Under the pieces are notes generated by a model that searched no databases, was not told where the DNA came from, and saw only the letters and a program-made list of their open reading frames with translations. From the NCBI RefSeq assembly GCF_004010195.1, contig NC_057718.1, positions 47,367,535 to 47,431,534 of the forward strand: a stretch of 64,000 nucleotides of DNA, written 5' to 3'. Of the stretch, positions 7,010 through 59,905 are shown piece by piece. Source of the stretch: Chiloscyllium plagiosum. Its lineage: Eukaryota. Both the position numbers and the translations under genes were made by a program. Numbering within the stretch: position 1 is the stretch's first letter; every line of letters begins with the position of its first letter.

Positions 7010-8357
7010 GTGCTGTGCAAAAAGAGATTTACAAGGATGGTGCTCGAAGTGTCAGAGGTTACAATAATTGGGAAGAAATTGAACAGGCTTAAAGGTCTTT
7101 TCTCTGAGAAAGGGGAACTGAGAACTGAACTGAAATAAGTCTTTAATTATAAAAGGATTAAGTAAGGAATGGATTAAGTGATTACCGGGGGATTTTAGTC
7201 TACATTTAGATTGGGAAAATCAAATGAGGACAGATAGCTTAGATGAGGAATTCATAAAAGGTTTTCAGGAGAGATTCTTACAACAGCATATTCCAGTATG
7301 ACCAGACAGCAGGCTTTACTAGACTCAGTATTGACCAAGAAGATAGTTTTAATTCATCATCTCAGTGAAGATGCCTCTAGGCAACACTTACCAGAACATA
7401 TGCTTTTTGAAGGAGAGAAGAGTGTGTTTAAAACTAAAATTTTAAACTTAAAGGACAATTATGAGGGCATGAAAATCAAGCTAGCAAAATTGACCTAAGC
7501 AATTTAAGCTAAGGGGTCACTCAATAGAGTTAGTAGTGGATGTTTAAGGAAACATTTGTATAAGGATAGAATTGATGCATTTCAACAAGAAAGACAAATT
7601 CCAAGGAATGAACCCCTTATCTGTGTTTAATTAAAGGAACTTAAAGATAATATTAAACTTAAAGAAAATGGAAAATTGCATAAAGATGCATGGCAAGTCA
7701 GAAGATTGGGCAGAATATCTTTTAAAAACTAAACAATGAATAAGGGAGGAAAATTGGAACAAAAGAGAAAGCTATATAAAGATATAAAAACATTAAGACT
7801 GCAAACAGCTGTTCAATAAAGACAGCTAACAAAGTGACCATTGATCCCATAGAATGAGTTTGCAGAATCAATAATGGTAAATAAGCAGATGGCAGTTGAA
7901 GTTAAAAGATATTTTGCTTTGGCTTTCACTATACAGGATACAAGAACCATCTCAGAAATTGCTGTCAGTCAGGAGTTGGAAGGAGAGAGGAACCCATGAT
8001 TACTACAAACACCAGAAGAGTAATACTTGGCAGATTATTGGAACTCAGTGTGGTGCTGGAAAAGCACAACTGGTCAGGGAGCATTAGAGGAGCAGGAGAG
8101 TCAACATTTCGAGCATTAGCCCTTCATCAGGAATGAGCCATTCTGCAGTCCTCACTTTCTCCTAGATTGTTGGAACTACAACTTGTCAAGCCCCTGGGTG
8201 TGATTGGTTTCATCATGGGTCTTAAAAAAAATTGACCTGTGAGATAGTTGATGTGCGGGTCTTAATTTTACAAACATCATTAGATTTGGGGAGGTTCCCT
8301 AAGATTGGAAGGTAGCTTCTGTAAATCCTTCGTTCAAAAAGGGATACAGAAAGCAAG
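7010..8357 (+). mobile_element. Old CR1 LINE fragments (endonuclease C-terminus to RT N-terminus)
   Basis: ITGGF (GDF-like) at ~7181, TRQQALLDSVLT (PTR..AxLDLVL-like), and a KIGR..VNPSFKKG-like stretch; heavily frameshifted; interrupted by a mini-PLE at 8046-8163. Confidence 0.75.
8046..8163 (-). mobile_element. Mini Penelope-derived element (family A) with minimal hammerhead ribozyme motif, partly inverted
   Basis: Minus strand CTGATGA-A-GGGC-TAAT-GCTC-GAAA-TGTT (core at 8124-8130); TSD AGATTATTGGAACT 8032-8045 / AGATTGTTGGAACT 8164-8177. Confidence 0.85.
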
Positions 8358-8915
8358 ATCATAAGATACAGAAGCAAGATTAGGCCATTCAGCCTAACTT
8401 GTCTGCTGTGCCATTAAATCATTTGATAGGTTTCTGAATCCTAATCTCCTGCCTTCTTCCCATAACTTTTGATTCCCTTATCAAGAGCTTATCTCTGTCT
8501 TAAATACTAAGCATGAAACTATTGGGAACTATTTGAAATAAAAGATCCGAAACAGGGTGGACATGGAAAGGATGTTTTCTCTGATGGGAGAATGTAGAAC
8601 TAGGGGCAACTTTAAAAATAAGGGGTTGCCATTTATAAAGGGTTGCCCATTTCTGACAGATCGAAATAAGGAGAATTTTTATTTCTGACGGTTGACAGCT
8701 CTTTTTCTCATAAGGCAGTGGAGACGGATTCTCTGAATATTTTTAAGGTGGAGATAGACAGATTTTTGATTACCTGGGGGGAGAAAGCGTCAAAGCTTAT
8801 TGGGGCTAAGCAGGAATGTGGAATTGAGTTTAACATAGATCAGCTGTGATTTTATTGAATTGTGGAACAAACTTGCAGAGCCAAGTGGCTGGCCTGCCAC
8901 TCATTTTAAAATGTA
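8358..8915. mobile_element. CR1 3'-end fragments (minus-strand tail ~8358-8510, plus-strand 3' end ~8530-8915)
   Basis: Typical CR1 3' sequences (GGCCATTCAGCC..., AGAACTAGGGGC..., TTTAAGGTGGAGATAGACAGATTTTTGATT). Confidence 0.75.
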
Positions 8916-9199
8916 TACAGAGGTTCCACTCACTGAGGTGGGATGGGGGGATGGATGCAGAAGTGGGATCACAACTATAAAATAGTCACCTATAAATCCA
9001 ATTGGAATTCAGGGGAAATTTCTTTACACAAAGTAGAATGAAACTCATTACCACAAGAGGTAATTGAGTGACCAGCATTGATGCATTTAAGGGGGAAATA
9101 GGCCATTATGGTAAAAGCAATAGAAGGATATATTGATGGGGTCAGAAATAGTAGGTGGGAGTCCAATCATTTGGAGCACTAACATTGACCTATTACGTC

Positions 9200-9405
9200 A
9201 AACAAAAATGGAAACTGCTGGAGAAACTCAGCAGGTTTAGTATTCGTGAACTAAAAACAGAGTTAATGTTTCAAATAGTTCTGAGGAAGGGTCACTGGAC
9301 TGGAAATATTAACTGTTTTCTCTGCACAGATGCTGCCAGGCCTGCTGAGTTTTTCCAGTAATTTCTGTTTTTCTTTGTTTGAGGTCTCCAGCATCCACAG
9401 TTGTT
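9200..9405. mobile_element. Penelope-type terminal repeat (family B), inverted arrangement, degenerate hammerhead
   Basis: CTGAGGA-A-GGGTC-ACTG-GACTG-GAAA-TATTAAC at ~9281-9313; arms CTGGAGAAACTCAGCAGG / CCTGCTGAGTTTTTCCAG are inverted; same family as 27.4, 28.4 and 60.1 kb. Confidence 0.75.
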
Positions 9406-11933
9406 TTATTTTATTTACCCATTGAGTCAAGTTGCATTGTTTTTATGTTCTAAATTATTTGTAGTCTTTACTGTAACATTACCTGACATGTACCACAAAT
9501 TGATTATGTGTCCAGGGATTTAAAGTCTCTAAGCTGTGCATTTTCTTACTCATCAGCAAACAAGTGCATTACCAAAATGATGTCATCGTGTAGTGATGTT
9601 ACTGCATTATTCCATCATTATCACACCATAACTGGTGGTTTGAGTGGAACTCAAATGATGCTGTTGATACAATACACAATGTAGTTTGACCAGGTTAGTT
9701 TACAGGAGAGCAAAGGATTTGCTGAACATTCTTCCTTTGGCTCTTTGTTGAACTTATAGCTAATCTCATTCCTATATTCTGTTCCCAAAAAGCCATTTGT
9801 CTGCAGAGTTATTTTTCGTTCAACCTCTTTTTGCAAAAAAGAACACATGCTCCAACAACAAAATGATTAAAACAATTTCTCATAACCTCTCTTCTCTCAA
9901 TGACTACTTCAACATAAAAGGTCCCTAGTCAGTAACTTTCCAACTGGAGGAATAAGTCATTTTATTTACCTTGTAGAAATTGTCCATAACATTGTATGAC
10001 TCCACGGAATCTCTTCTTTTTTGTTTTTTGGGGAAATACTCCCAATAGCTCCACCTTTTCAACATAAAAGACTTTTTAAATGCTGGGTGTTGTTCAAATT
10101 AAAATTACCCTTTTATTGGTTTGAATGTCTTGGTATATTTCTTTGTTGCTATGCTCTAGGTTCCCTTTTATAAAACCCAGTCCAAATGTAACTTCATGGA
10201 AAGCATTTTGGAAATGCTCTGGCCATATCACTCAACTGTCTCGCATCTCCAAAAGGAAACTCCTATCTCTAGCGTGCTTTTATTACTACATTATCTTTAT
10301 CTACTACATCTCCATGGTAATTTTTTCCATTAAGTCTTCTCTGCGCTTTTTAAAAAAGAATGCAACTGCTAGTCTCCAATTCTATTTCTCTATTGTGTTT
10401 TCTCTGAATCTGTAGGTTGAAATTTACACTCCTCATGTTGTGAGCTTGGAGGAAGGATCGGCTGGGAAAGTAGAAGGGAACTGCATTGGGAAGACTGCAC
10501 AATGCATTCCTGCCACTACAGAACTTACTTTGATACAGGTTGGGTTGTGGTTTAACTGTCCATTCTATATAGGTAGACAGCCAATTAACATTGGAAGGTT
10601 CCAATTTAGGGTGATGCTGTAGCCTAACAGGTGAAGTGGCCTGCTCAATGGAGGCAAGCTCCCTGTGAGTACCAGCTCAATGGAGGCAAGCTCCCTGTGG
10701 CATATCATGGGACCAAAGCTGGTGTTTCCATGCAATAATGACAGGATTACAGGCAGGAAAGATCACACTTGCCACCCACCTATTTTACTACAGGAGTTTC
10801 CCCTCTGCTCCACAAGGCCTAATGGCCCTAATTCCGACAACCAAAAACCTGTAACTCCATCTCTGACAGTATCTCCATTTTGCTCTTATAGTATCTGAAC
10901 TGTTGCAAACCACCATCTTTCAAAGGGCTATTAGGGTTGGACAATAAAAGCTGCCCAGCCAATTATGTCCACATCCCCTTAACAAACTGCCTCAGAAGTG
11001 ACCACTTCCTCCGGTGGAATTGTTGAGGTGCCAAAACTGTTGGCCATCAATTAGAAGGCCACCTCCACCATGATTGGGCCTCTGGTCTCACTGCTAGTAA
11101 GTCACAGTCCTGAAGCCTATGTGAAAATTCAGTGCTATATTACAACATTCAATTCCATTTTAAATCTCTGCCAGAATGTACCAGCTAATGCAAACAGGAT
11201 TTTTTTTCTCAATTGCAAAATCATGAGGCAAAAAAATCATAAATGGTCTGATAAAGGGTACGATTAAAAATGTTCGCTTATTTGTCTCCATCCAATCCCA
11301 AATCAAATTTCACACATTTTAAAAATTTTATTTTCAATTACTAGTATCGATGCATTCCATTTCTATTTTAATACCATATGCTTATTCCATTGTCACAGAT
11401 ATTCCAGGTAACTACAATAATCACATTTGCTTCTCTCATTTATTGCATACACACAAGCACAGAAGGATTAGAACAATGGCCAGTTGTAAATGCTATTCAA
11501 TCAGCTGTCAGGAAAATCTTTGACAATAAAGTTTATTTAGCTGTGACAGTTTTAGTCTAACCACAAATGAAATAGGAACTTTAATTTGTGTGGCAGATTT
11601 GTCATGTATACAACAGGTTTTATCAAATCCTAATATGAAACACAAAGCCCTGGATTGAATTAATTTAAAATACAATCACAAAGTTCATTTTGACCTTCAA
11701 ACTCGGTTACTAACTGACAATGACTCAGTAAATTGTACTTTTCCTCTCCCACCATTACTCATAAAAAGATAATGACTACAGTTTATGGAATTTCCTGTAC
11801 CGAACACATCAGCAATTTAAAAGATTGGCAATAGCAAAGGCACTAATACTCATCCCCTGTAAGATCATATTTAACTAGAAGAAATTAACCCTTGGTCCTA
11901 CTTTGCTGGGTTAATGTTAACCCACAATAATGC

Positions 11934-12237
11934 ATTAGATTAGATTCCCTACAATGTGGAAACAGGGCATTTGGCCCAACAAGTCAACACCTGCCCTCTG
12001 ATGAGTAAACCACCCAGACCCATTCCCCTATCCTACATTTACCCCCAACTAAGGCATCTAACACTATAGGCAATTTTGCATTGCCAATTCACCTGGCTTG
12101 GACGTCTTTTGGATTATGGGAGGGAACCCATGCAGACACAGGAGAATGTGCAAACTCCACACAGACAGTCACCTGAGGTGGGGATCAAACCTGGGTCCCT
12201 AGCAATGTGAGGCAGCAGTGCTAATCAGTGAGCACCA
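11934..12237 (-). mobile_element. HE1 V-SINE, moderately diverged
   Basis: ATTAG-type tail; V-domain GTGCAAACTCCACACAGACAG; tRNA-like head GCAGCAGTGCTAATCAGTGAGC. Confidence 0.92.
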
Positions 12238-12619: not shown

Positions 12620-13660
12620 GATGAAAACCGTCATTTTGTCAAAGCTTTTTATCTTGCATTCATCAGGACACTTTACAAGATTACAAATTGAAGGGGAGGA
12701 GACAAACATTTATACTGTGTGACAGAAGAGTGCTGATTGGTTGTCACGTGGACTCTGATTGGCAGAAGCATTGCCATGGCGAATGCACCCATTAGTGCTA
12801 ATATACAGTGAATAGTGAGGCTTTGCCAAATTTTAAAACAGGTAGCTGGATTCTGATTGTTCAGTGCTTTGCTCTGAAAAACAAACCAGTGCACGGTTGT
12901 CACCTACTTTGTTGACTTTATATGTGTACAGTACATGTACATGTTCCCTAAGTCTGCAAAGAACAGGGACTTGTGTATTTATATTCGTAGCTTCCAGTAC
13001 ATGCTTGTGTACCACATTGAGAGCCTGACTGACAATCCTAAATTTCCTGAAGGGCTTTCACCCGAAATGTTGATTTTCCTGCTCCTCAGAGGCTGCCTGA
13101 CCTGCTGTGCTTTTTCCAGCACCACACTCTCGATTCTAATCTCCAGCATTTGCACTCCTCACTTTCACCCTGACAATCCTAAATTGTTGGTCAGAATAAT
13201 TCCCCTCACATTCAGGATTATCCAACAAATGTTTTCCAATTAGAGAAACATGTCTAATGTTAGATACAGTATGATGAGTTTTGCAAGCGTGGGTTGATTG
13301 GCTATGGTCAGTACCTTGCTTGTTAAGAACAGCAGAGGGACATGCTGTTCGATACAACTTGCCAGTACAATGTATATACTGTGATGGAATCACACCAGAA
13401 CTAAAATTCACATACCACATTGCTTATTTGTGCGATAGGCAGAACATCTTTTTGGCTTGATGGCAGCATCTTATTGGTGGCAAACACCATCTGTGTCACT
13501 GGTACATTATAGCAGCTTGAAACAGCTAGCTGCATCCGTTACTCAATCATTTGAGATCATTTATCCTTCCAGGATAATCTGAGGCAGACTCACTTTTCAG
13601 AACCAAGAGTGAATTGCCACAGGGCATTCCATGAGTTTACATGCTTTACAGTGAGAAATT
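12620..13660 (-). mobile_element. Penelope-like element 3' part (GIY-YIG endonuclease plus 3' repeat), decayed
   Basis: Minus ORFs give SLIGKHLLDNPEC..YSDQQFRIV and HVLEATNINTQVPVLCR (PLE endonuclease C-terminus); degenerate GTC-CTGATGA...GAC hammerhead at ~12636-12669. Confidence 0.8.
13045..13169 (+). mobile_element. Mini Penelope-derived element (family A) nested in the older PLE
   Basis: Perfect 16-bp TSD CTGACAATCCTAAATT at 13029-13044 and 13170-13185; hammerhead core partly deleted (CTGA-AGGGC..CCCGAAA). Confidence 0.88.
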
Positions 13661-16411: not shown

Positions 16412-16544
16412 ATACAGATCTCTCTACACTGGATTTCTGCAGGCACTCTCTGCTTTGTTAAACCATGTGAACAGCTTCACATTTTCCCATGTTAAATTCC
16501 AACTGCCACGATTTCACCCACTAGCTCAAACTAAACTATTTATA

Positions 16545-16669
16545 TCTGATAAAGGGCTTATGCCCGAAACGTCAACTCTCCTGCTCCTCGGATGCTGCCT
16601 GACCTGCTGTACTTTTCCAGCACCACACTCTCAACTCTGATCTCCAGCATCTGCAGTTCTCACTTTCTC
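16545..16669 (+). mobile_element. Mini Penelope-derived element (family A) with hammerhead motif (G8>A)
   Basis: CTGATAA-A-GGGC-TTAT-GCCC-GAAA-CGTC; TSD-like CTATTTATATCTGA 16536-16549 / CTATCTATATCTGA 16670-16683. Confidence 0.88.
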
Positions 16670-17164
16670 CTATCTATATCTGACTGCAATGTCCTCTTCA
16701 CAACATACATTCTTACCTATTTTGTGTTACCTATAAATTTAGTGACCATGCTTTCTTCATCTAACTCATTGATACAAGTTGTAAAAAACTGAGACCCCAA
16801 CACAGACTCCTGTAGGATTTCACTCATCAACATCCTGCTGAGCAGAAAAAGACCCAGTTATGGACATTCTCTGTATCTTTCCAGTCAGTTGGTCAATCTT
16901 CACTCCCTGATGATATATTCACACCGTACTTTATGCAATAACCTTTTATAACCAGAGGAAGTGGTGGAGACCAGTACAATTGCAACATTTAAGAGGCATC
17001 TGGATGGGTATATGAATAGGAAGGGTATGGGGGAATATGAGCCAGGTGCTCTATAATGACTACATGACCTTGTCAGATGCCTTCAGGAAATCCAGTACAG
17101 TACATTGACAGGCTCCCCTTTTAGTTCAACACAAGCTACTCTTTCATTTGTTTTTAATTTAACT

Positions 17165-23132: not shown

Positions 23133-23567
23133 GGTTGGCACAATGGTTAGCACTGCTGCCTCCCACCGCCAGGGACCCAGGTTCAATTCCCGCCTTGGGC
23201 CATTGTCTGTGTTGAGTTTACATATTCTCTCCGTGTCTGTGTGGGTTTCCTCCAGGTCCTCCCTCTATCTAAAGACGTGCAGATCAGGTGAATTGGTCAT
23301 GCTAAATTGCCCATAGTTTTAGGTGCATTAGTCAGGGGTAAATGAGCATGAAGCCTACAGTCCCAGTGGTCTGGAAAGAGGTGATACTATTTTACACATA
23401 AGGACTTGATGAATTGGTCATGCTAAATTGCCCATAGTTTTAGGTGCATTAGTCAGGGGTAAATGTAGGGGAATGGGTCTGGGTGGGTTATTCTTTGGAG
23501 GGCCGATGTGGACTTGTTGGGCCAAATGGCCTGTTTCCTCACTGTAAGGAATCTAATCTAATCTAAT
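23133..23567 (+). mobile_element. HE1 SINE with an internal 56-bp duplication and a 70-bp templated insert
   Basis: A-box TGGCACAATGG, B-box GGTTCAATTCC, V-domain, (ATCTA)n tail; 23289-23344 equals 23410-23465. Confidence 0.92.
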
Positions 23568-27367: not shown

Positions 27368-28460
27368 AAAAATAAAAGCAAAGTACAGCAGATGCTGGGA
27401 ATCTGAAACAAAAATAGAATGTGCCGGAAAAATTCAGACTGGAAACATCTATAGTGAGAAAAACAGAGTGAATGTTTCGAGTCCAGTGACCCTTTGTAAG
27501 AACTAAAAATAGTCAGGAAATGATGGTATTTACACTGTTGATGGGAGTGAGTAAAGTGGTGACCAGAGAGAAAGGGAAGAAGAGAGAAAAGAAAAGGCTA
27601 GGCAAATAAAGGGAGAACTAATGATAAGCTGAGAGACATAAATGTTGGGTCAGATGCTAATAAGTAGTGCAAATGTTTGAAGTTGTAAATAGTTTAGCTG
27701 TGCAAGGAGCAACCCATACAACACAGGACCTAGGGGTGTGGGGGAGTGTAATGAACATAGAGGTAGCTATGCATGCTCTAAAATATTACACTCAATGCGA
27801 AGTCCTACAGCCCGTAAGATACCAAGGCAGAAAAGATGAGACATTGTTTCTTCAGGCTGAGCCTTGCTGGAACATTGCAGCAAGCCTGAGACAGAAATGT
27901 TGACATGGGAATGTGATGATTTGATGCAGTGACAGGTAACTGAAAGATTGGGGCGTTTTCACAGGTGGAGTTTAGGTGATAGGCAAAGTGATCACCCAGT
28001 CTACGTTTCGTCCTCCCAGTGTAGAAGAGACGCAGTGAGTATAGTAAATTATACTGATGGAAGTGCAGGTAAATCGCTGCTTCACCTGGAAGGTATGTCT
28101 CGGGCCTTAGATAGCGAGGAGGGAGGAGGTAAGTGGGTAAGTGTTGCACCTTCTGCAATTGCATGAGAAGGTGCCGTGAGGATGAGAGGTGGTGTTGGGA
28201 ATGTACCAGAATGTTTTGGTGGAAAGGATCTTTATAGAATGCTGACAAGAGAGAGGAGGGGAACATGAGTCTAGTTGTGGTATCTTGCTGGAGGTGGTGG
28301 AAACAACAGCTTTTTACCCTATGGGTACCGAGGCTGGTGGAGTGGAAAGTGAAGACCCAAGGCACAAAGGGTTACTGGACTCTAAATATAAATTCTGCTT
28401 TTCTCTCTACAGGTACAGCCAGACCTCCTGAATTTCTCCAACACTTCCGGTTTTTGTTGT
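27368..28460 (-). mobile_element. Penelope-like element (family B), 5'-truncated, with a 3' repeat and an inverted terminal copy
   Basis: ORF 27805..28365(-) has LFYTGRTKRRLGDHFAYHL (GIY-YIG); terminal repeat ~27370-27505(-) and inverted copy ~28365-28460(+). Confidence 0.85.
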
Positions 28461-28639: not shown

Positions 28640-28833
28640 TGTACAAAGTTAAAAATCACACAACACCAGCTTTTGCTATAAATTCTATATCTTACAATCT
28701 TATACTCCACAACCACCTGATGAAGGAGCAGCACTCCGAAAGCTAGTGCTTCCGATTAAACCTGTTGGACTATAACCTGGTGTTGTATGATTTTTAACTT
28801 TGTACACCCCAGTCCAACACTGGCATCTCCAAA
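28640..28833 (+). mobile_element. Penelope terminal repeat (family C) with an intact minimal hammerhead core
   Basis: CAC-CTGATGA-A-GGAG-CAGCA-CTCC-GAAA-GCTA-GTG at 28714-28748; short inverted copy at 28640-28669. Confidence 0.85.
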
Positions 28834-44670: not shown

Positions 44671-45664
44671 GCAGACCCAGCAATGGATCTATAAGGACAT
44701 CAAGGGTTATGAGGTGCTGGCAGACAAGTGCAGTTAAGGCCACAATCAGGACTGCCATGATCGTATGGAATGGCCAATCAGGCTTGGGGGGGGTCAAAGG
44801 GCCTACTCCTATTGCTTATGTTCTTGTAAATTGTGTGGTTTGGAGGAAAGAGTGAACTAATGAAATGTTCAGAGACAGAATGCTCTATAAATTGGTGGTG
44901 GGTGGTGCTATATTCCAAGAGGACCAGGAGATCAAAGTGTTTTAACAGCAAGAGCTTTATTATGAAGATATTTACTCTGCAAGGAGCAAGGTAAGATTAA
45001 ACTGTTTTTCTCCAAAATGACTGATGACATTATCATGACATCACATGATGGGATTCTTAAAGTGATAGTCCACCATACTTACCAATACACAATATGCGAG
45101 TATTGGATTGGGAGAGCTAGGAATGAAAATGAACAGATTACAAGAACAGTCTAAAATTAATGTTGAGGAGGAGGTCAAAGGGAACATATCTCTTTAAGGA
45201 AGGACATTACTGACTGCTGAGGTCAATTTTGGGAACACGGTGATCCAACTGGCTTACTAAAAATCAAAAATGCAATTTATTTTTACTATTCATTTTACAT
45301 TAAAAATGTATTGATTATAAATTTTAAAATAATCTAGAATTGGCTGGATAGGATCACCATAATGTAAAAGTTCTCAAATTTCTCATGAAATTTATCAAGA
45401 ATGCCCAAAAACTGTGGCACAAACTGATACATTCCATCAGAAACTGATGAAACCTGTTGACTATAGTCCTCCCTAGAATGATTCTATGGCCTATTATTTG
45501 TGGTCTAAATTTCCTAGCTGTTTCTAAGCAATTGTTAGAAAGTAAATTAAACATGTTTTCTTGTAGTTATATTATTTGTTGCTCTTGCAATAAAGAACTT
45601 TTAAAACAAAGACAATAAAATCTCAAGTGTCAGATAAAGAATAGTTTACAAATATGAAAATATT

Positions 45665-45789
45665 AGGAGAAAGTGAGGACTGCAGATGCTGGAGATCAGA
45701 GCTGAAATATGTGTTGCTGGAAAAGCGCAGCAGGTCAGGCAGCATCCAAGGAGCAGGAGAATCAACGTCTCGGGCATAAGCGCTTCCTC
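45665..45789 (-). mobile_element. Mini Penelope-derived element (family A)
   Basis: Perfect 14-bp TSD AATATGAAAATATT at 45651-45664 and 45790-45803; truncated within the hammerhead core. Confidence 0.9.
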
Positions 45790-45819
45790 AATATGAAAAT
45801 ATTGTACCCTAGTTAGATA

Positions 45820-47730: not shown

Positions 47731-48794
47731 TGTTATTTGATTTTCTTTTAAATAAAATACCTTTGTTCATTGCAGAATCTAAATCACTCAAAAATATACT
47801 CAAAAAATAAAATGTCAAAGAAGAAACATCTGATTCATGAATCTTTTGCCTTACCACAACATATTCCATGTCATATTGCACCCAATTTCCTCTCAGTCAG
47901 TGGACTAGACAAGAATTGTTTGCTCACTAATAGATTCCATTCCACTGAACTGTGCTAGTTGTACTATTGGTTCTTATCAAAACACTTTATAAATCATGAC
48001 TTTTGCTGATAATTTCCCATAGCTTCATGGTAAGTTCTTTTAAGTTACTTGAAATGATTTCAAGTGTTATCATATTGACCTTTATACTTTAGATTCGGGA
48101 GTTTGACTCCCTGTTTTTATCTATGAATTCCAACACCCATCTAAATCTCTTTAATTACTTCCAGCCTCTAACTTGCAGAACATTTGCACTCCTCCATTTC
48201 TCGTCTTTTAAAAACTCCAATTTTAATTACCAGTTGTAGTCATACTTTCACATGCCATAGCCCTCCATAACTCCCTCATTAAACAACTCCTCCTTTCTGC
48301 TTCTTTTTCCTTCTTTAAATTAAACCTGGGTGCATAATCAGGCCGTTTGGTCATCCATCCTGGCACTTTTTTTGTCACTCGGTGTAAAATTATGTTATGG
48401 AAAATGTTATGTTCGCGTTACAAAATTTCTTGTGTTGCATGTGTTCTTGTTGAGCCAGTTTGCTGAATTAGCATTTCCAATCCACTCCTTGTACTCCAGT
48501 GGTAAATTCAGTTTTCTTGTTGCTGATCTGATTCTAAGAAGCTGGATTTAGTCATGGAAGCCAACAGCTTAAATCACAGGGATGACAGCCCCCTGGGGTA
48601 TGAATTAACTCGGGTCCAAGTATTGTGAACTTCACTTAGCTCTGCGTAAAGCTTTATAACAAAATAATTAAGAAGGATGATGTCACAGGCGAAATGTATG
48701 GATTCCCTTGAATGTCCATAATCAGCACGTTTGGTATGGAAGAGATGTGAGTTTTCTTATCTTTAGTGTGTGCAGCCCAGTTAAATAATCACAG

Positions 48795-48873
48795 CAGTCG
48801 AGAGTGTGGTGCTGGAAAAGCACAGCAGGTCAGGCAGCATCCGAGGAGCAGGAGAAACAACATTTCAGGCATA
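48795..48873 (-). mobile_element. Mini Penelope-derived element (family A), partial
   Basis: GAGAGTGTGGTGCTGGAAAAGCACAGCAGGTCAGGCAGCATCCGAGGAGCAGGAG. Confidence 0.85.
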
Positions 48874-50349
48874 ATACCAGCACCAAACGTTTGTGATTTT
48901 GAGGACAAAGAGTTTTTTTTGTCACTTATTTAATCCAGAATTAAAACACAATACCTCATACATGCACAGTTACACAAAAAAAGTTTGGCTACAGGTAAAG
49001 GTAAAACTGTTACAGTCTTTGGTTAACTCAGAAAACAGAATAGAAAATAAAGACTATGATGATTTTAATGCTTTGAAGTGAAACAAGGGACTTCTAAAGT
49101 GAAGGATTTCCAGCCAAAAGTGAGTTTTTTTTTATATAGCTGAATTTCTCGAAGTTTGGTTCTGATGTAAATGATTTTTTTTTAACAGATTGGGAGACTC
49201 CTTCTCTCCATTGAGGCTTCCTGCTTATGACGTATTGCTGTTAATTACCTTGAATATCCTGCAGCTAGTTTTATGATCTTCAGCAAGGGAGGGAGTCTGC
49301 TCTTGGCTTTGACCTCAAAACAATAGAATTAACAGAGGTCAGGAATCCTGGTCTTAAGGAAAGGGAAAAAGTAAATGAGTTGTGTCACAAAGACAAGTCT
49401 CTGCAGATCTTAATCTTCTGGTAAAGGTGTGGGTGCAGAATGATCATTACATATTAGGAGAATCAAAAATGAATGAATGAAAGTGTTAATCAAAGTTATT
49501 TTAAACAATAGCTGCATTTTCGTAAAAGACAAAGCCTTCCTTTCAACAGGCAGCCAGAGAACTCTGTATTGCTGTCAGTCAGCTATTCTCACTGACCAAA
49601 AAACACCAGACGTGTATGACTGCTTTGTGTTTTTGTATGTCCTAATGTAAACCTGAACCTTTCACTTAGATGGTGTAACCATTTTAAAAGTATTTTGAAG
49701 GCTATGAAAAGACTTGTATGATGCCACAGAAACACCAGGCAGTTAAAATAAATAAGAAAGGAACAATGGGCAGACTGGAAATGGTCTGAAGAAACAATTA
49801 TGTCAAGACACTTAGCAACAAGAACTTAAAGCAAAGCTGGAGATAAATACGTCGTAATCAACTTTCCATGCCATTGTTTTGACATGCTCACTGCTGTGAT
49901 GTTCCAAAGCTGAAGATCAATTTTAGCTTCTTGGTGTCAGATGCAAAATATTCTTGTTCTTATTGTGCTGCGAAAGAATATTTAGAGTTTGCTGAAATAG
50001 TTTCTTATTTAAGAAACATCTTACTGTGTCTTTATTTTCAAAGCTTCAAGAGAGAGCAAGATAATGGCGTTATATTGCTTCCTGTGATGTTGCATTCTGT
50101 CTCCTCACAGTCAGACCAAAGCTGTTATATAATGGGAAGATTCTGCAGAAGTTTCTTCCAGCACCATGTGAGGATGTCATGGTTAATGTCAGGACATTGC
50201 AAAAAAGAGGTTTTTACAATCCTAGAATGATACAGAAAGAGATTATACTTTTCATTCAAATGTTATGATTAATATTGAACTTGCTATCAAAGCACTGTGT
50301 GCAAATAAAAATTATATACTAAACATTATTAACTGCAAATCCAACTGGA

Positions 50350-50609: not shown

Positions 50610-50710
50610 ATTGGCAGTATTGCTATGGCGACAACACAAAAGCAATCAACATCAACCCCAAAAGTTCTTGGACAGGCTACAGGGTAAATGCTCAAATTAG
50701 TACTAGAAAT

Positions 50711-50928
50711 GGACAAAGAGAAAATGAGAACTGCAGATGCTGGAGATCAGAGTCAAGAGTGTAGTGCTGGAAAAGCACAGCAGGCCAGGCAGCAACCGAG
50801 GAGCAGGAGAATCGATGTTTCTGCCATAAGCCCTTCATTAGAAATTCAGGGCTTATGCCCGAAACATCGATTCTCCTGCTCTTCGGATTCTGCCCGACCT
50901 GCTGTGCTTTTCCAGCACCACACTCTCC
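50711..50928. mobile_element. Fold-back (palindromic) family-A mini-PLE
   Basis: ~79-bp inverted arms ~50756-50834 / ~50848-50926 meeting in the hammerhead region; flanking ACTAGAAAT at 50702-50710 and 50929-50937. Confidence 0.88.
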
Positions 50929-51439
50929 ACTAGAAATCTTGGTCCTGATTCAAATAATTGCAACCAATATACTAATAATCAATATGTTGACAAATTCAGT
51001 ATGCTTTCTCTGAGCTGAACTTTTAGATCATATCCTCTTAGTGATAAAGACCACCTTCTAACATATCCATAACAGTGGACATCTGCACTGCTCCCTTACT
51101 GCTGCTGAAACTCCAGCTCCAAGCTTCATTGTTCTGATGTTCTTCTGGTCCAATTCCTGATTTTCCATGTTAGCCAAAGAAGAGGATAAATTCAGCCCGT
51201 CCAACATTTTACAGCACACATCCTATACAGCACAAAGACGTACTGAACGACTGACATCAGCTTCTGCTTCCCAATACCGATCATTTCAAATTCTGATCCT
51301 CTGTATAACCTCCTCCAGCTCTCTGAATCCTCTCATCTTCTCCCATTTCTTCAGTCCTCTGACTCCAGCCTTTAATGTTCGCTTCCACAGCACTTCAATT
51401 TTTTGGATACCCTTCTCTATTTCTCCATCGTCTCTTCCT

Positions 51440-52980
51440 CAAGCGGACACCCCCCCCCCCCCCTCCCGGAACCCATGTCACTGGACTTTTGAGCTACCCT
51501 GGTAATCTCAGCTTCGAGATGCCTTTTGAGTTTCATGCGCCTTGGTAAAGTTTCTCTCTGTAATGCCAGTCGTTTATTGGAAGTTTTATCATCTTTACAC
51601 TTGTATAAGAATAGCGTTGAACGCACCCGTTTTTAAAACAAAACCCATAACAATAAAAACCCTGGACGAAATTACAAATGTTTCCAATCCTCTTGGGATT
51701 TCCTTGTTTTATAACTGTTCACGTGATTACATGTTGGGAGTTTGATACAATGTATTCAACGACAGTATTTTCCCGCACCGTTTGTACCCCAGACCTCTAC
51801 GACTCTGCTGATAAATGGACAGTAATTATTGTGATGATTTTAGATCTGAAATTGATAAACTCCTGCAGTTCTTCATGTCATGTTGGGTTCCCGGAACAGA
51901 ATGCGTCGGCTGATTTGAGGGAATTGTTATCGAGTAATCGAATGAACTGATTTACAATGTAAATCAAATGACCAATGCAATCACAATATTTACAGTCAAG
52001 AACCCTTGAGCTACAGTGAAACAACACCCTTTCCGCAAGTGTGCACCGAGCTACTTCTGGTAAAACCGATTACTCATTCTGCACCTAGCCCTTGTTTAAT
52101 GTCAAAGCCGAACAAAGCTGATGTCATTTATTCCAGTGAAGATATTAGGAGACCGTTTTTTTTTTAAAAAAGTTAATTATATTGATCTCGCAGAGCAGAC
52201 CGGGAACCGGTGTGGTCACCGTTTAAACGAAAAATAACCGGGGGGAATAAAGTACTGGAAATAAAAGACTCGCGGCAGACACACCGTTTATTGTAATTGG
52301 ACACTTCGAATCCGTGCAAATAAACACAGAATTCAGAGGCAGAAAAGTCAAACAATGAAGGGTAAAGAATTATACTCAGTTTTCAAAAAGTCAGATTTAA
52401 CGTGGAATACATACAATTGCCACATTTACAATAATTCATCCATGTTCATGGACAAGTGGGGCAGGAAAGTCAGTACTATTAATATTTTGATAGTTATACA
52501 GAATAATTCAGATCATTCTGTAATTGTCTGCAAAACCTCAGAGGTATTTTTGTTTTCAGAAGTATGAACTGTTGCCGGACAGATTGCATCAGAAGGTGCT
52601 GACTCATTGTGTTTATGTTTCCACGTGATACTGACTTCAGTCCTGAAACCACTCAACGTCAAATGATCCGCTGATAACTAATATTCATCACGTCATTTAA
52701 AAAACACATTGATTGTTAGGGATATCCAAACATTGTTTTAATCGAACTTTAGGATCATATTGAAACGGTGGAAGTATCCTTCAGTTTTGATTGGGATTTA
52801 GCGACTGTTCACTCTTGTGATTATTTTGTTATTAAAATTACATTTTGAATGTTACAGAGACAGGCTGGAAAAAAAAACAAGAGGATTATTGGTGTACAAA
52901 CATTGAAGGGGCGGCTCATGTTAGAGACTCGAGATTTTTACTGACTTTGATGCATCCAAAGTGAGAGTGATGTCCGAGTA
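51440..52980. promoter_or_regulatory. Second CpG-enriched, repeat-free region; candidate enhancer or alternative promoter
   Basis: CpG retained; cluster of ATTGCATCA 52583-52591, TGACTCA 52600-52606, CACGTG 52622-52627, TGACTTCA 52632-52639, ACGTCA 52656-52661, TCACGTCA 52688-52695. Confidence 0.65.
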
Positions 52981-53209
52981 AAGGCTTTTCTTATCAAGCA
53001 AAAACGCTCTCAATGTCTTTATGAACCTAAACTCTTTACAAAAGATGATGAGAGTAGTTATCCATTCATTGGAAACATCTCTGAAGACTGGGAATGTAGT
53101 TCTGATATGTTCAGAAATGTTTATAAAATAACTTCTGTGTATTCTCTAGCTCATTGACTGCCTATCAACATAAAATGCTGTATTTTTAGGTTGTCAATGT
53201 TCTGTCTTT

Positions 53210-53800
53210 TATTTAGTCGTAGGATGCTGGCATTATGGCTGGCCAGCATTTATTGTCCTTTCTAGTTGTCTCTGAGAAGATGGTGGTGAGTGTCCTTCTT
53301 GAATCGCTGCAGTCCATGTGATGTAGGTTGACCCACATTGCCCTGGGAGAGGGAATTTCAGGATTTTGACCCAATGACAATGAAGGAATGGTGATAAATT
53401 TTCAAGTTAGGATGGTGTATGGCTTGGAGGGGAACTTGCAAGGTGGAGGTGTTCCCATGTATCTGCTGCCCTTGTCCTTCGAAATGGAAGTGATCATGGG
53501 TCTGGAAGATGTGCCTAAGGATCTTTGGTGAATTTTGGCAGTGTATCTTGTGGATGGTACACACTGCTGCTACTGAGCATCAGTGGTGGAGGGAGTGGAT
53601 GTTTGTGGATGTGGAGTCAATCAAGTAGGCTGCTTTGTCCTGGATGATGTCAAGCTCTAGAGTGTTGTTGGAGCTGCACACATCCAGGCCAAGTGGGGAG
53701 AATCCCATCACACTTCTGACTTGTGATGGAGTCCACTACGCTGCCAAGTAACATCCGTACCACAAAATACCAAGCAATGACCATCTCCAATATTAGACAA
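53210..53800 (-). mobile_element. CR1/L2-like LINE family C 3' end, with a short inverted piece at ~53725-53800
   Basis: Collinear with 40190-40660; tail GGCCAGCATTTATTGTCC. Confidence 0.88.
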
Positions 53801-54039
53801 TTAGAGAGACTGTCTCATGGTATATAACAAATCATCAGTTCTGTGTATTGGCAGAATTACACTGCTGTGCAAACAAGTTAACTCTCTTTTCTTGAAATCT
53901 TCTACTTAGTATATACTAGCAATCCAGCAATGGCAGCACTAACAGTATGCACAAATGTTGGTATGGTCACAATTTGAGATTCAAATTGCACCAATGGTGG
54001 CAAAACAGATCACACAAAACACAACAGAATCAGTCAATG

Positions 54040-54410
54040 ATCTCCAAGGATATGACTTTGAAGTGAGATACAAGCCAGATGCTGGGATTATTCTGTCTGA
54101 CAGGCTGAGCAGATTGCCCTGCCAGACCCAGACAAAGACCAGATATTCCTCTTGGTCTACACATTGATGCTGTTGATGCAAACTTAGAATATCACAACAA
54201 GTCATCATTAACCTTGTCGTTGTTTGGGTCTGGCTGGGCAATCAGCTCAGCCTGTCAGACAGCATAATCCCAGCACCTGGTTTATATCTCATTTCAAAAT
54301 CTTTAAAGGCAAACAATCCTAAGACTAAAAGCATTACCACAAGATATTATGTCCATGCTACACAAGGAACACTTAAGTATATATACAGCAACACATAAGG
54401 TAGCTAGAAC
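54040..54410 (+). mobile_element. Gypsy LTR-retrotransposon pol remnant (RNase H end, integrase Zn-finger start)
   Basis: LQGYDFEVRYKPDAGIILSDRLSRLP (RNase H C-terminal motif); KALPQDIMSMLHKEHLSI (LH..HLG-like). Confidence 0.8.
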
Positions 54411-54540
54411 ACCTGCTTCCATCTCTACTCCCTAACCTCACACCCAAGTTTCTGTCTTAAATTGGGTTTGTTTTCAGTACAGCCAGCTCATTTCACCCTC
54501 TCATCGTTCCCATTATAACCTATCTACATTCTCTTATACA

Positions 54541-55148
54541 GACGTAGAATTATACAGCATGGAAATAGACCCTTTGGTCCAACTCGTCTGCGCCAACCAG
54601 ATATCTAAACTGATCTAGTCCCATTTGCCAGCATTTGGCACATATACCTCTAAACCCTTCCTATTCATATACCCATCCAGATGTCTTTCAAATGTTGTAA
54701 TTGTATCGACCTCCACCTCCTCCTCTGGCAGCTCGTTCTATACACACACCACTCTCCAGATGAAAAGGTTTCCTCTCAGGTCCCTTTTAAATTGTTCCCC
54801 ATTCACTTTAACTTATGCCCTCTAGTTTTGGACTCCCCTATCTTGGGAAAAAGGCCTTGGCTATTCACCCTATTCATGCTCAAATGATTTTATCAACATC
54901 TATAAAAGATATCCGTCAGTCTCCGACGCTCCAGGGGAAAAACTCTATTCAGTCTCTCTTTATGGATAAAACCCTCCAATCCCAGCAACATCCTTGTAAA
55001 TTTATTTCTGAAATCTTCAAGTTTAATAACATCTTTCCTATAGCAGGGAGACCAGAACTGAATAGAATTTTCTAAATGTAGCCTCACCAATGTCTTGCAC
55101 AGCACAACTTGACATTCCAACTCCTATACTCAATGGTTTAGCGCAATG
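54541..55148 (-). mobile_element. HER1/CR1 LINE 3' part (continues at ~58284)
   Basis: ORF 54893..55120(-) has LVRLHLENSIQFWSPCYRKDVIKLE; tail CAGCATGGAAATAGACCCTTTGGTCCAAC. Confidence 0.9.
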
Positions 55149-56965
55149 ACCTCTACAGCGCTGAAGCCAGGCGCCAACTCAAAGACACCTCCTCCTATTA
55201 CCCCCTTGACTACAACCTCAACTCCCATCATCAAACCATCATTTCCCAGACTGTACACAATCTCATCATCTCAGAGGATCGCCCACTCACAGCTTCCAAC
55301 CTCATGGTTCGAGAACTCCACACCGCCCAATTCTACATCCTACCGAAGATCCACAAGCCTGACTACCCAGCTGACCCATCGTCTCGCCCTGCTCCTGCCC
55401 AACCAATATGTCCACATACCTCAATATGTCCTATCCCCCCGGTCCAGGAACTCCTCATACGTTCGGGACACCACCCATGCCTTCCACCTCTTCCAAGACA
55501 TTTGTTTCACTGGCCCCCAATGCCTCATCTTCACCACGGACCTCCAGTCCTGAAGCACTTCTAGCCGCCATGATGAAGGCCTCCAAGCCCTCTCTTTCTT
55601 CCTCTCCCAATGTCGTTTGGCTAAACTGGTCCTCACCCTCAATAATTTCTCCTTCGAATCCTCCCACTTCCTCCAGAACAAAGGGGTAGCCATGGGCACC
55701 TGCATGGGACCCAGTATGCCTGTCTGTTTGTCGGTTATGTAGAATGGTCCATCTTCCGCAGTTTCACCGGCACCACTCCCCACCTTTTCCTCTGCTACAT
55801 TGATGATGTTTCAGTGCCACCTCGTGCTCCCACGAGGAGGTTGACAGTTCATCAACTTCACCAACACATTCCACCCGGCCTTAAGTTCACCTGGACCATC
55901 TCAGACACCTCCCTCCCCTTCCTGGACCTGTCCACCTCCATCAATGGTGACCAACTCAACACTGACATCTTCTACAAACCCACCAACTCCCACAGCTACC
56001 TGGATTACATCTCCTCCCACCCTACCTCCTGTAAAAATGCTATCCCTTATTCCCAATTCCTCCACCATACCTGCTCCCAGGAGGACCAGTTCCACCACAG
56101 AACACACCAGATGGCCTCCTCCTTTAAAAAACGCAATTTCCTCTCCCTCATGGTTGATGATGCCCTCCAGCACTCCCGCACCTCCACCCTCAAACCCCAC
56201 CTCTCCAATCACAACAAAGACAGAACCCCCAGTCCTCATTTTCCACCCCATCAACCTCCATATATATCGCATCATCATCCCCCATTTCCACCACCTACAA
56301 ATGGACCTCCTCACCAGAGATATATTTCCCTCCTCACCCCTATCCACTTTCCGTAAAGACTATTCCCTCCACAACTCCCTCGTCAGGTCCACACCCACCA
56401 CAAACTCACCATCCTCTCCTGGCACCTTCGCCTGTCATCACAGGAATTGCAAAACCTGTGCCCACACCTTTTCCCCCTCACCTCCATCCAAGGTCCCAAA
56501 GGAGCCTTCCATATCCATCAAAGTTTTACCTGCACTTCCACTCATCATTTACTGTATCCATTGCTCACAATACAGTCTCCTCTACACTGGGGAGACAGGA
56601 TGCCAATCGCAGAGTGCTTCACAGAACATCTCCAGGACACCGCACCAACCAACCCCACCGCTCTGTGGCCGAACACTTCAACTCTTCCTCCCACACCACC
56701 AAGGATATGTAGGTCCTGGGCCTCCTCCATCACCACTCCCTAACCACCCAAAACCTGGAGAAAGAATGCCTCATTCCGCCTCTGGACCCTCCAACCACAT
56801 GGCATCAATGTGGACTTCACCAGTTTCCTCATTTCCCCTCCCCTCACCTTATCCCAGTTCCAACCCTCCAACTCAGCACTGCCCTCATGACCTATCCTAC
56901 CTATCCATCTTCCGTCCCACCCATCTGCTCCACCCTCCTCTCCGACCTGTCACCGTACCCCCACC
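55149..56965 (+). mobile_element. Penelope-like element (RT, Cys-rich linker, GIY-YIG; Neptune-like), frameshifted
   Basis: FYILPKIHKP, KGVAMGT, YIDD, LKFTWTISDTSLPFLDL, YKPTNSHSYLDY..SHP..CKNAIPYSQF, CHHRNCKTC, IIYCIHC..LLYTGETG across frames. Confidence 0.93.
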
Positions 56966-56967
56966 CC

Positions 56968-57690
56968 CATCTGGTACTACTCCAGTGGACAGTGAGGACG
57001 CAAAGATCATCACTAAAGGCACAGAACTCTCTTCCATCACTTCCCACAGTAACTGTGAGTATATCGCGTCTGGTCCAGGGGACTTATCTATTCTCATGTT
57101 TTTCAAACTTTCCAGCACATGCTCCTTCTTAACATCAACCTGTTCCAGTGTTTCACACCGTCCTCAGAAATGACAAGGTCCCTCTCACTATTGAATACTA
57201 AAGCAAAGTATTCATTAAGCACTTCTCCTACCTCCTCCGACTCCAAGCAAACGTTCCCTCCACTATCCCTGATAAGCCCCACCCTCACTCTGGCCAGCTT
57301 CTTGTTCCTCACATAGGTGTAGGAAGCCTTAGGGTTTTCCTTAATCCTAGTGGTCATGCCCCCTTCTAGCTCTCTTAAGTCCATTCTTTAGTTCCTTCCT
57401 GGCTACCTTGTAACCTTCGAGAGCCCAGTCTGATCTTTGCTTCCTCACCTTAAGTATGTTTCCTTCTTCCTCTTGACTTGAATTTCCACATCTCTTGTCA
57501 TCCAAGGTTCCTTCACCCTACCATCCTTTCCTTGCCTCAGTGGGACAAATCTATTCAGCACTTGCAGCAAGTGCTCCCTAAATAACCTCCACATTTCTGT
57601 CATACATTTCCCTGAGAATATCTGTTCTCTATTTATGCTCCACAGTTCCTGCCTAATAGTACTGTTATTCCCCCTCCCCAAATTAAAACC
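56968..57690 (-). mobile_element. CR1 LINE internal fragment
   Basis: Minus ORFs: IKENPKASYTYVRNKK, LNEYFALVF, IDKSPGPDAIY. Confidence 0.9.
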
Positions 57691-57711
57691 TGTGCCCACC
57701 CCCCCTCCCCC

Positions 57712-58013
57712 NNNNNNNNNNNNNNNNNNNNNNNNNNNNNNNNNNNNNNNNNNNNNNNNNNNNNNNNNNNNNNNNNNNNNNNNNNNNNNNNNNNNNNNNN
57801 NNNNNNNNNNNNNNNNNNNNNNNNNNNNNNNNNNNNNNNNNNNNNNNNNNNNNNNNNNNNNNNNNNNNNNNNNNNNNNNNNNNNNNNNNNNNNNNNNNNN
57901 NNNNNNNNNNNNNNNNNNNNNNNNNNNNNNNNNNNNNNNNNNNNNNNNNNNNNNNNNNNNNNNNNNNNNNNNNNNNNNNNNNNNNNNNNNNNNNNNNNNN
58001 NNNNNNNNNNNNN
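57712..58013. other. Assembly gap (302 N)
   Basis: Run of N. Confidence 1.
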
Positions 58014-58290
58014 TTCGACTGGGACAACACTACTATTATAGGACAAGCCAAACAGAGAACAGCCATGGAATTCCTGGAGGCATGGCACTCATCCACTGAT
58101 TCAATCAACAAGCACATTGACCTGGACCCAATATACCGGCCACTGCAGCAGACAGCTGGAACTGACAACCGGAAGCAGCAGGTACAAATCACTATAAATG
58201 CCGGAGGAAAGATCCCAGAAGCGCTTCACAGGAGGCTCCCAAGCACTGAGGATGTCACCTAGACAGGGGACGAAACATCTGCAAACACAA
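58014..58290 (+). mobile_element. Penelope/Poseidon-like element 3' end (GIY-YIG C-terminus plus hammerhead)
   Basis: FDWDNTTIIGQAKQRTAMEFLEAWHSSTDSINKHIDLDPIY; GCA-CTGAGGA-T-GTCACCT-AGAC-AGGGGAC-GAAA-CATC-TGC at 58243-58282. Confidence 0.88.
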
Positions 58291-59905
58291 AGTACCAAAT
58301 ATGTTCTTCATCACCATGTCTACCTGTGACTTCATATTCGAGAAACTATGCACCTGCATCCCACGGTCTCTTTGTTTGGCAACACTATTATTAACTGTAA
58401 AAGTCTCATTACTGATGAAGGGCTTATGCCTGAGAAGTCAATTCTCCTGCTCCTCGGATGCTGCCTGAATGTGGTGCTGGAAAAGCATAATCAATCTTCG
58501 ACTTTGATCTCCAGCATCTGCAGTCCTCACTTTCTCCTGTAAAAGTCATGCCTTGGTTTGCCATACCAAAATGCAACACCTCACATTTATCTAAATTAAA
58601 CTCCATTTGCCATTCCCTGGCCCACTTACCCACCTGATCATGATCCAGTTGTACTCTGAGATAACCTTCTTCACTGTGCACTACCCCACTAATTTTGGTG
58701 TCATATGCAAACTTAATAACCATACCTCCTATGTTTACATGCAAATCATTTAAATAAATGATGAAAAGCAGAGGATCCAGCACCAGTACTTGCTGCTTTT
58801 CCTCAAAGCCTTTCTTAAATAATGGTACTGTATTAGCCACCTTCCATTGTTGTCAATGATACAAATGTTTCAGGAAGGGGTCAGCAATCTCTTCCCTAGC
58901 TTCTCACAAAGGTCTGGAATACACATGAGAAAGCCCTGTGGATTTATCTACCTTTATGCATTTTAAGACCTCCAGCACTCCCTCTTCTGCAACATGGATA
59001 CTTTTCAAGACATCACTACTGATTTTCCCACATTCCCTAGCTTCCATGTCCTTCTCCATAGTAAATACTGACATGAAATATTCAATTAATATCTCACCCA
59101 TCTCCTGTGGTTCCACTCATCGCCTCATTGATTTGTAAGGGACCCTCTTCTCTCCCTAATGACTGTTTTGCCCTATAACGTATTTAAAGAATGTATTTGA
59201 GTTCTCTTTTACCCTATTTGTCAAAGCTCTCTCATGTCCCTTTTATGCCCCCCCCGATTTCCCTCTTCAGTTTACTCATACTGCCTTTATACTCATCTAG
59301 GGATTCAATCAGTCTGTCCTGATATATGCCTCCTTCTTCTTTTTCTTAACCAGAGCCTCAATTTGTCTCGTCATACAGCATTCCTACACTTATCAGCATT
59401 GCCCTTCACACTAACAGGAACATACTGTCTCTGAAATTTCATTATCTCATTTTCGAAGGTCTCCCACTTACCAATCATCCCTTTTCATGCAAAAAGGCTC
59501 TCCCAATCAACTTTTTTGAAAGTTCCTGCCTAGTACTGTCAAAATGAGCCTCAGTCCAAGTTTGAATTTTAACGTTTAGATAAGGTCTATCCTTTTCTAT
59601 AACTATTTAAAAACTAATAGAATTATGATCACTTGCCTCAAAGTGCTCCACTTCAGTCGGTTGCCTTGCTTTATTTCCCAAGAGAAGGTCAGATTTTGCT
59701 CCTTCTCTAGTAGGTACATTCACATATTGAATAAGAAAATTTTCTTGTACGCACTTAACAAATTCCTTTCCATTCAAGCCCTTAACACTATGGCAGTCCT
59801 GGTCTATGTTTGGAAGGTTAAAAATCCCCGACCATTACAACCCTAATATTCTTACAGATATCTGGGATTTTCTTACATATTTGTTTCTGTTTCCCACTGA
59901 CTATT
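58284..59905 (-). mobile_element. HER1/CR1 LINE upstream part (continuation of 54541-55148)
   Basis: Minus ORFs: IKFAYDTKISG, WQMEFNLDKCEVLHFG, EVLKCIKVDKS. Confidence 0.9.
58406..58536 (+). mobile_element. Mini Penelope-derived element (family A) with a small internal inversion
   Basis: CTGATGA-A-GGGC-TTAT-GCCT-GAGA; TSD CTGTAAAAGTC at 58395-58405 and 58537-58547. Confidence 0.88.

Follow-up and report, generated by a model that had tools for sequence, protein, structure and literature searches.

A short hammerhead-bearing repeat in Chiloscyllium plagiosum resembles the end module of a Penelope-like element, with 5' ends clustered at the ribozyme core

The window analysed here (64,000 nt of Chiloscyllium plagiosum contig NC_057718.1) carries a short hammerhead-bearing unit at seven loci, together with a broken body and an older remnant of Penelope-like elements (PLEs). 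BLASTN across the 64-kb window recovered all seven loci, which could be aligned as one family, and the consensus proposed in the earlier note agreed with this alignment. Simple copies lie at 13045..13169 (plus strand, from a core with 3 nt deleted to the shared 3' end, site B), at 16546..16670 (plus strand) and at 45665..45789 (minus strand, from core position +2 to site B). In the second of these the core starts at 16546, the predicted cut falls after 16573, an earlier 3' end (site A) lies at 16636 and a tail occupies 16637-16670. The copy at 58406..58537 (plus strand) runs from 6 nt upstream of the core to site B and holds an internal inverted piece (58467-58485); a tailless copy at 48796..48874 (minus strand) runs from loop II to site A and is followed by a 9-nt inverted piece (48877-48885). 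The 8046 locus comprises a minus-strand arm (8047..8137) from 7 nt upstream of the core to site A, the sole arm with all invariant core bases, and an inverted plus-strand partner (8143..8163) that contains part of the 34-nt tail and ends at site B. At the 50711 locus a fold-back insertion has a left arm (50717..50845, minus strand) from 4 nt upstream of the core to site B and a right arm (50848..50931, plus strand) from stem II to site A, without the tail.

BLASTN and alignment placed the two 3' ends 34 nt apart, the interval between them (16637-16670) being the Penelope 'tail'. Site B ends five arms and one tail piece, and site A ends three arms (48795, the 8046 left arm and the 50848 plus arm). 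The earlier note had described seven copies of one unit, four of them running from the core to a common other end. The seven loci do form one family and five arms take that course (13045, 16545, 45665, the 50711 minus arm and 58406), but a second 3' end exists and inverted pieces are present at 4/7 loci (8046, 50711, 58406 and 48795). Varied fold-back junctions were also seen among the joints listed from other contigs, with 50754, 50784 and 50790 joined to 50848-50850. Most PLE insertions are 5'-truncated, and their tail is given as 30-40 bp in PMC8557442 and PMC11167929 and as 34-37 bp in PMC2377424. An optional 30-40 bp tail and an inverted 5'-truncated arm beside the direct arm, both traits of EN+ PLE insertions, are present here, and two 3' ends with inverted pieces are the described insertion pattern of PLEs.

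Target-site duplications (TSDs) of 11–16 bp had been reported at five copies, and flank comparison found all five again. Three are perfect: 16 bp for the 13045 copy (13029-13044 / 13170-13185), 14 bp for the 45665 copy (45651-45664 / 45790-45803) and 11 bp for the 58406 copy (58395-58405 / 58537-58547). The 8046 locus (8032-8045 / 8164-8177) and the 16545 copy (16536/16670, overlapping the first core letters) each have a 14-bp TSD with one mismatch. The weakest of the five was equalled by 1/296 random 125-bp spans. At the 50711 locus the flank match was just 9 bp, a score reached by 7/296 random spans, and the same comparison found no TSD at the 48795 locus.

The family alignment revealed a minimal type-I hammerhead layout in the end module of the unit, with a stem II of 4 bp and a helix I of just 2 bp before a mismatch. 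Inspection of the alignment by eye found every invariant core base kept in 1/8 arms, that of the 8046 locus. The bare core pattern alone was not above chance (2 matches vs 1.47 expected), and an Rfam search gave no hammerhead match at E<=5; we make the hammerhead call because the layout is common to the unit family and three other families in the window. Minimum-energy folds contained stem II in 6/9 stretches and the full hammerhead in none, and folding energy was below that of shuffles for one of the nine, 16540-16672 (z -2.41). A helix between the tail and the segment following the cut site was kept in 90.5% of cells across two families; its covariation was weak (score reached by 26/500 shuffles). 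Rfam matches to mir-302 and mir-505, below gathering scores and located on fold-back junctions, were rejected.

In the alignment, the 5' ends of all eight arms fall between -7 and +13 relative to the core. Every arm begins 16-35 nt upstream of the cut site and none at the cut site itself, and the letters upstream of the core differ from those of the 3' end. Consensus sequences of the loose ends before 50848 share the core and 6-8 nt upstream of it and then diverge between runs, in 4/4 runs (513, 329, 97 and 354 records). Given these arm starts and the point at which loose-end agreement ends, the 5' boundary is non-random but not made by cleavage; the proposal of a boundary associated with the ribozyme is supported, and the proposal that ribozyme cutting creates it is not. 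The earlier note had set against itself the outcome that breakpoints are random and copies are truncated PLE ends; the breakpoints proved non-random, whereas the copies do resemble PLE ends. In the sister family, 2/4 ends in the window extend well upstream of the core, and sister-family arms at 9277 and 61844 start at their own cores. The one mapped PLE start site, that of D. virilis, is not at the core but upstream of helix I by 46 nt and an intron of 75 nt. Since that intron ends at helix I, we considered whether the boundary arose at a splice acceptor; we rejected this, as the AG is retained in the sister copy at 9277 and is absent near -7 from the single upstream record of the unit family.

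The candidate kind of partner for the unit is a broken Neptune-type PLE body at 55113..56970 (plus strand), in which an RT part, a CX4CxxC linker and a GIY-YIG with CxxC can be read as motifs, and whose 3' end is missing. Its frame at 55845-57173 has the trait by which PMC8557442 defines Neptune, a CX2-5CxxC linker before a C-terminal GIY-YIG with an internal CxxC, and an Atlas lead for this body had GIY-YIG on 21% of members (score 0.94). An older remnant at 27376..28371 (minus strand) has a body homologous to the 55-kb body, ends in a hammerhead-bearing module homologous to the unit, and has an inverted arm at about 28365-28460. The order of an RT and GIY-YIG ORF followed by a hammerhead module is seen in this sister module; for the unit family itself one joint class, 50845-55160, hints at it. 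In that contig class (X5, depth 63.6), known from one run, the inverted unit arm at 50845 is joined to the body at 55160 with 29 letters between them, in an orientation that we infer. The 55-kb body is cut short at about 56970, ahead of its end module, and no intact long element of the unit's own family was seen; no joint from about 56970 to the unit occurred among the 15 of 2762 joints or the 12 of 441 spacer rows listed. Body sequence is abundant in its own right: depth bins in X1, which are summed depth and not copy number, were 21,666-453,519 for the body vs 1,067,006 and 499,338 for the unit. Pfam found nothing in six PLE-body frames or the 58014 frame, two word-index searches with body pieces returned nothing, and unit patterns had 0 matches in viral, metagenome and prokaryote collections. 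An open antisense frame of the unit had no relatives, and thus gives no link between unit and body. Homology to the ORF-linked end, the tail and the inverted arms back the PLE origin suggested for the unit, and its mobilisation by a PLE RT/GIY-YIG enzyme, also suggested earlier, is likewise supported.

We think it probable that each copy is the 3' end module of a Neptune-type PLE, inserted in short form by target priming. The missing intact long element, the single record class behind the direct link, the empty searches with the body, the D. virilis start site and the sister ends upstream of the core weigh against this. Directly observed are the anatomy, the TSDs, the two 3' ends, the inversions, the clustered 5' ends and the homology to the ORF-linked end. 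In the proposed mechanism the GIY-YIG endonuclease of the element would nick AT-rich DNA, and the RT would prime at the nick and start inside the RNA, downstream of the hammerhead, at either of two sites separated by 34 nt. Copying would then proceed for about 95-135 nt in the direction of the RNA's 5' end, across the hammerhead in its uncleaved state, and in most cases end no more than about 8 nt upstream of the core. Joining of this short cDNA to the target, often together with another arm in inverted orientation, and subsequent repair would leave a TSD of 11-16 bp. TPRT with two internal start sites and an uncleaved template is established for a Poseidon element (PMC11167929), and by analogy the unit family may behave likewise. 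As the cause of the RT stop we lean slightly towards a template 5' end lying near the core; our second guess would be a structural or protein block. More tentatively, what these PLEs produce most often may be a finished 'strong-stop' insertion, for which RT starts in the end module and halts at a fixed point on the front edge of the hammerhead, which stays uncleaved, either because the RNA begins there or because a complex of hammerhead and protein stands in the way. In that case the ribozyme would mark a boundary or a start instead of cutting, and a mini-family of its own may spread from some of the stubs.

A self-standing non-autonomous family, in which one or a few masters of ~135 nt, born as PLE stubs, use flanking or internal promoters and are mobilised in trans by PLE protein, seems unlikely to us. 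Under that account the 5' cluster would be the start of the master; 0/8 arms reach >7 nt upstream of the core, the unit is deeper than the body, rotifer pLTRs alone sufficed for mobilisation in trans (PMC3846280) and the conserved tail-pairing helix means that the complete cis signal may lie within the unit. However, tailed and tailless copies and the unit-body contig fit production from long elements, and the start of sister arms at their own cores suggests a property of the mechanism. Among RNA reads on the stretch 95% continue into unlike sequence and no pile-up of starts or ends was listed, the source being a poly(A) single-cell library (about 2% used) ill-suited to the question. The claim that the unit inserts on its own is true of each single insertion event. 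We prefer PLE ends: the tail of 34 nt, fold-back junctions at varied positions and the joint to a body of Neptune type are better matched by the ends of long PLEs.

A non-LTR retrozyme, in which cleavage at successive hammerheads, circularisation of the RNA and its reverse transcription place the boundary at the ribozyme cut, would account for the type-I layout and long TSDs, and monomers derived from pLTRs, also in one chondrichthyan, are described in bioRxiv 10.64898/2026.07.22.740005. Yet 0/7 tandem arrays in the window are the unit, which is therefore not a retrozyme as defined, and no head-to-tail joint was present among the 15 of 2762 joints listed. The 16-35 nt kept before the cut site by all arms, the unlike letters at the two ends, the short helix I and the single intact core also stand against this reading, which is largely refuted and which we regard as highly improbable. 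The label 'retrozyme-like' is accordingly not supported for ends that lie off the cut site, with no tandem units in the window and a minimal, not canonical, hammerhead. Equally improbable is random 5' truncation of long PLEs, with the cluster at the hammerhead an artefact of viewing only short core-bearing copies. Shorter pieces do exist (the tail-only arm at 8143 and inverted pieces of 9-19 nt), most PLE insertions are truncated, and long copies may go unseen because contig assemblies are interrupted at repeats; against this, 8/8 arms reaching stem II end within a 20-nt span, and agreement is lost just upstream of the core in every run.

Dispersed minimal hammerheads from truncated PLEs with a tail and inverted arms are an already known kind. 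What is useful here is where the 5' ends lie. What the hammerhead does for PLEs is still described as unclear (PMC8557442), and in vitro the process did not require cleavage (PMC11167929). Thousands of insertions crossing the cut site and stopping just before the core would identify uncleaved RNA as the template used in vivo, and would indicate the position of an RNA start or an RT block. If the strong-stop proposal is true, roughly 10^5 such fossils in one genome would map the stop at single-base resolution.

Non-LTR retrozymes, as described in PMC7229834 and bioRxiv 10.64898/2026.07.22.740005, share with the unit a type-I hammerhead, a non-coding nature, long TSDs, a relation to PLEs and dispersed monomers, but are defined there by tandem hammerhead units and circular RNA, whereas the unit has no tandem in the window and ends off the cut site. 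The minimal hammerheads that occur singly in truncated PLEs of metazoans (Cervera and De la Pena 2014, PMC4209133) are alike in their minimal type-I core, extra base after position 9, G10.1-C11.1 pair and palindromic 15.2-16.2, and in occurring as dispersed single motifs and opposite-strand pairs at high copy number; stem II and helix I of the unit are shorter (4 and 2 bp vs 7-8 and 4-5 bp in S. mansoni). EN+ PLE insertions (PMC8557442, PMC3846280 and PMC2377424) have in common with the unit an optional tail (34 nt here), inverted arms tailed at one end, TSDs and solo end modules. Unlike in those examples, the commonest product here is just the last ~125 nt, and the TSDs of 11-16 bp are longer than the 8-10 bp of rotifer PLE examples. 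Poseidon_Ac (PAc; Frangieh et al. 2024, PMC11167929) differs from the unit-linked body, whose Neptune-type linker is known from sequence, in belonging to the Poseidon clade and in an ORF that starts at stem II. It starts 85-92 nt downstream of the cut, the fixed ends of the unit lying 63 and 97 nt downstream (16573 to 16636 and 16670), and is alike in its AT-rich targets and in copying through an uncleaved hammerhead, as we propose for the unit.

All seven loci of the short unit (8046, 13045, 16545, 45665, 48795, 50711 and 58406) were recovered in the window by BLASTN with three copies as queries, and alignment joined them in one family, as the earlier note had proposed. A flank scan also bore out its five copies with target-site duplications (TSDs) of 11–16 bp: these were perfect at 13045 (16 bp), 45665 (14 bp) and 58406 (11 bp), and of 14 bp with one mismatch at 8046 and 16545. 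The score of the weakest of the five was reached by 1/296 random spans, that of a 9-bp flank match at 50711 by 7/296, and no TSD was found by the scan at 48795. The flanks of this last copy carry a 7-nt inverted match (48787–48793 vs 48892–48898) in place of a direct repeat, which may be chance. The unit loci are genuine, and their kind is already known.

Other repeats in the window include tRNA-like SINE copies (38817–39116, 60639–60938, 11953–12233 and 23136–23562; two 95–97% alike), many CR1/L2-type LINE pieces (RVT_1 at 4428–5591), and an inverted repeat at 54054–54301 (89-nt arms, 88% complementary) that is nearly single-copy in the aligned runs and in which one frame may encode the last part of a Ty3/gypsy RNase H. 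This SINE and LINE content would suit a cartilaginous fish as host.

The unit motif consists of the core, one extra base, a 4-bp stem II opened by G-C, GAAA, a palindromic stem III and NUH, with a helix I of 2 bp followed by a mismatch. The unit had no hammerhead match in Rfam at E ≤ 5, the bare core pattern occurs in the window at chance level, and by eye only the 8046 arm (an arm being one direct or inverted piece of the unit) keeps all invariant core bases. The hammerhead of the earlier note therefore stands as a putative minimal one, assigned on a layout that fits the minimal motif of PMC4209133.

With the first core base as +1, the predicted cut falls after +28. The eight arms reaching stem II or its loop begin at −7, −2, about +1, +2, +13, −4, +8 and −6; 16–35 nt upstream of the predicted cut are retained in 8/8, and 0/8 arms in the window start at the cut. 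Records of four sequencing runs were aligned to 50650–57100 at 80% likeness. Loose ends before the plus arm showed the core plus 6–8 common letters, then run-specific letters (513, 329, 97 and 354 records; agreement 0.47–0.52), and those at site B, the farther 3' end of the unit, 2–4 common letters and then AT-rich sequence (1102, 453, 175 and 871 records), where the counts for runs X1 and X5 are lower bounds (best 24 of 9913 listed), the consensus carries no fraction of longer copies, and contig breaks in repeats may confound the reading. Since arm starts cluster near the core and loose ends agree only 6–8 letters upstream, the 5' boundary of the unit is non-random and falls at the ribozyme's front edge, distinct from the cut. 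Of the suggestion that the ribozyme sets the boundary, its location at the ribozyme is supported, and its formation by cleavage is not. No description of such a cluster was found in the open-licence literature searched; it makes the role of the hammerhead in Penelope-like elements (PLEs) testable.

Three further hammerhead-bearing end modules occur in the window. Sister arms at 9277 and 61844 likewise begin at their own cores, but the 5' stop is not absolute, because the ends at 60081 and 27500 extend well upstream. An older sister family (9212–9412, 28365–28460, 30068–30110 and 60020–60195) has a helix I of 4 bp; its copy at 9277 starts at helix I and is preceded by an inverted arm, and that at 60081 extends at least 55 nt upstream. 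Another hammerhead-bearing family, about 120 bp long and with arms in inverted orientation, lies at 28640–28833 and 61690–61936. Its 61.7-kb locus folds back on itself almost perfectly and has a sub-threshold mir-302 match in Rfam, and such hairpins could yield small RNAs or false miRNA calls. Directly after an assembly gap, 58014–58290 (+) holds the C-terminal piece of a second GIY-YIG ORF, presumably Poseidon-like, and downstream a hammerhead-like motif of its own whose stem II is longer (about 58245–58280).

A broken PLE body lies at 55113–56970. One frame carries a CX4CxxC linker and then a GIY-YIG-like pair with CxxC, which, read from sequence, is the Neptune-type arrangement as defined in PMC8557442. 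Atlas gave a GIY-YIG lead (score 0.94, family on 21% of members), and the body had no match in Pfam or in two protein searches. An older remnant (27376–28371) aligns with it and terminates in a unit-homologous module; its opposite end bears an inverted arm. In X5, one record class (depth 63.6) links unit position 50845, across 29 intervening letters, to body position 55160. We read this joint as an inverted unit arm preceding a truncated body, the orientation being inferred. The rows listed (15 of 2762; 12 of 441) included no joint connecting the 3' break of the body with the unit. In X1 the summed depth, which is not copy number, was 1,067,006 and 499,338 in the two unit bins, 21,666–453,519 in eight body bins and 1.25–18.1 in nine bins from 51082 to 53025, showing only that unit and body are both highly repeated, the unit more so. 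RNA reads of run X21 on the plus-strand body (55186–56913) were biased first-mate-on-plus, about 2–4 to 1, and those on the minus-strand unit arm (50650–50865) in the same way, which means that the two are read in opposite senses. This bias may stem from host read-through or from internal priming.

The unit has two 3' ends, one more than the earlier note describes. Site B, which is position 16670 in the copy at 16545, is the end point of five arms and one tail piece; three arms stop 34 nt earlier, at site A (16636). Inverted pieces, also absent from that note, occur at 4/7 loci: a core-bearing arm with an opposite-strand tail piece (8046), two arms with the tail on one (50711), a 19-nt internal inversion (58406) and 9 nt (48795). 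In the unit and older sister family the tail, the stretch between the two sites, can base-pair with the segment that follows the cut (90.5% of cells vs 30–49% in slid controls; n = 7, covariation weak), and this helix may be a structure bound by the reverse transcriptase (RT).

The copies are probably short target-primed insertions templated by Neptune-type PLE RNA, with an internal start and a stop upstream of the core. AT-rich DNA would be nicked, the RT would start inside the RNA at site A or site B, pass through the uncleaved hammerhead and stop just upstream of the core, at either the RNA 5' end or a block, and the cDNA would be joined to the target, either alone or together with a second arm in inverted orientation. 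The sole mapped PLE start site lies farther upstream than the unit's 5' boundary. Mobilisation by a PLE, as first supposed, is the likeliest reading given the insertion marks and the module ending the older remnant, although the body-unit joint comes from one X5 class. That the unit is instead a self-propagating mini-family seems unlikely. A retrozyme in the defined sense was not borne out: the unit is in none of the 7 tandem arrays in the window, and no arm ends at the cut. According to a 2026 preprint, PLE insertions are mostly 5'-truncated and carry a single terminal repeat, and such insertions can seed retrozymes (bioRxiv 10.64898/2026.07.22.740005).

The proposed target-primed insertion from PLE RNA can be set beside known systems. 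For a purified Poseidon element, PMC11167929 describes the tail as reflecting a pair of RT start sites inside the RNA, with uncleaved RNA serving as the main template. The unit layout agrees with the motif described in PMC4209133, where single minimal hammerheads are scattered, "probably related to truncated PLEs", and opposite-strand pairs also occur. In PMC8557442, PMC3846280 and PMC2377424, insertions of endonuclease-positive PLEs are marked by an optional 30–40 bp tail and an adjoining inverted truncated arm, and the unit loci show both marks, with a tail of 34 nt and inverted arms.
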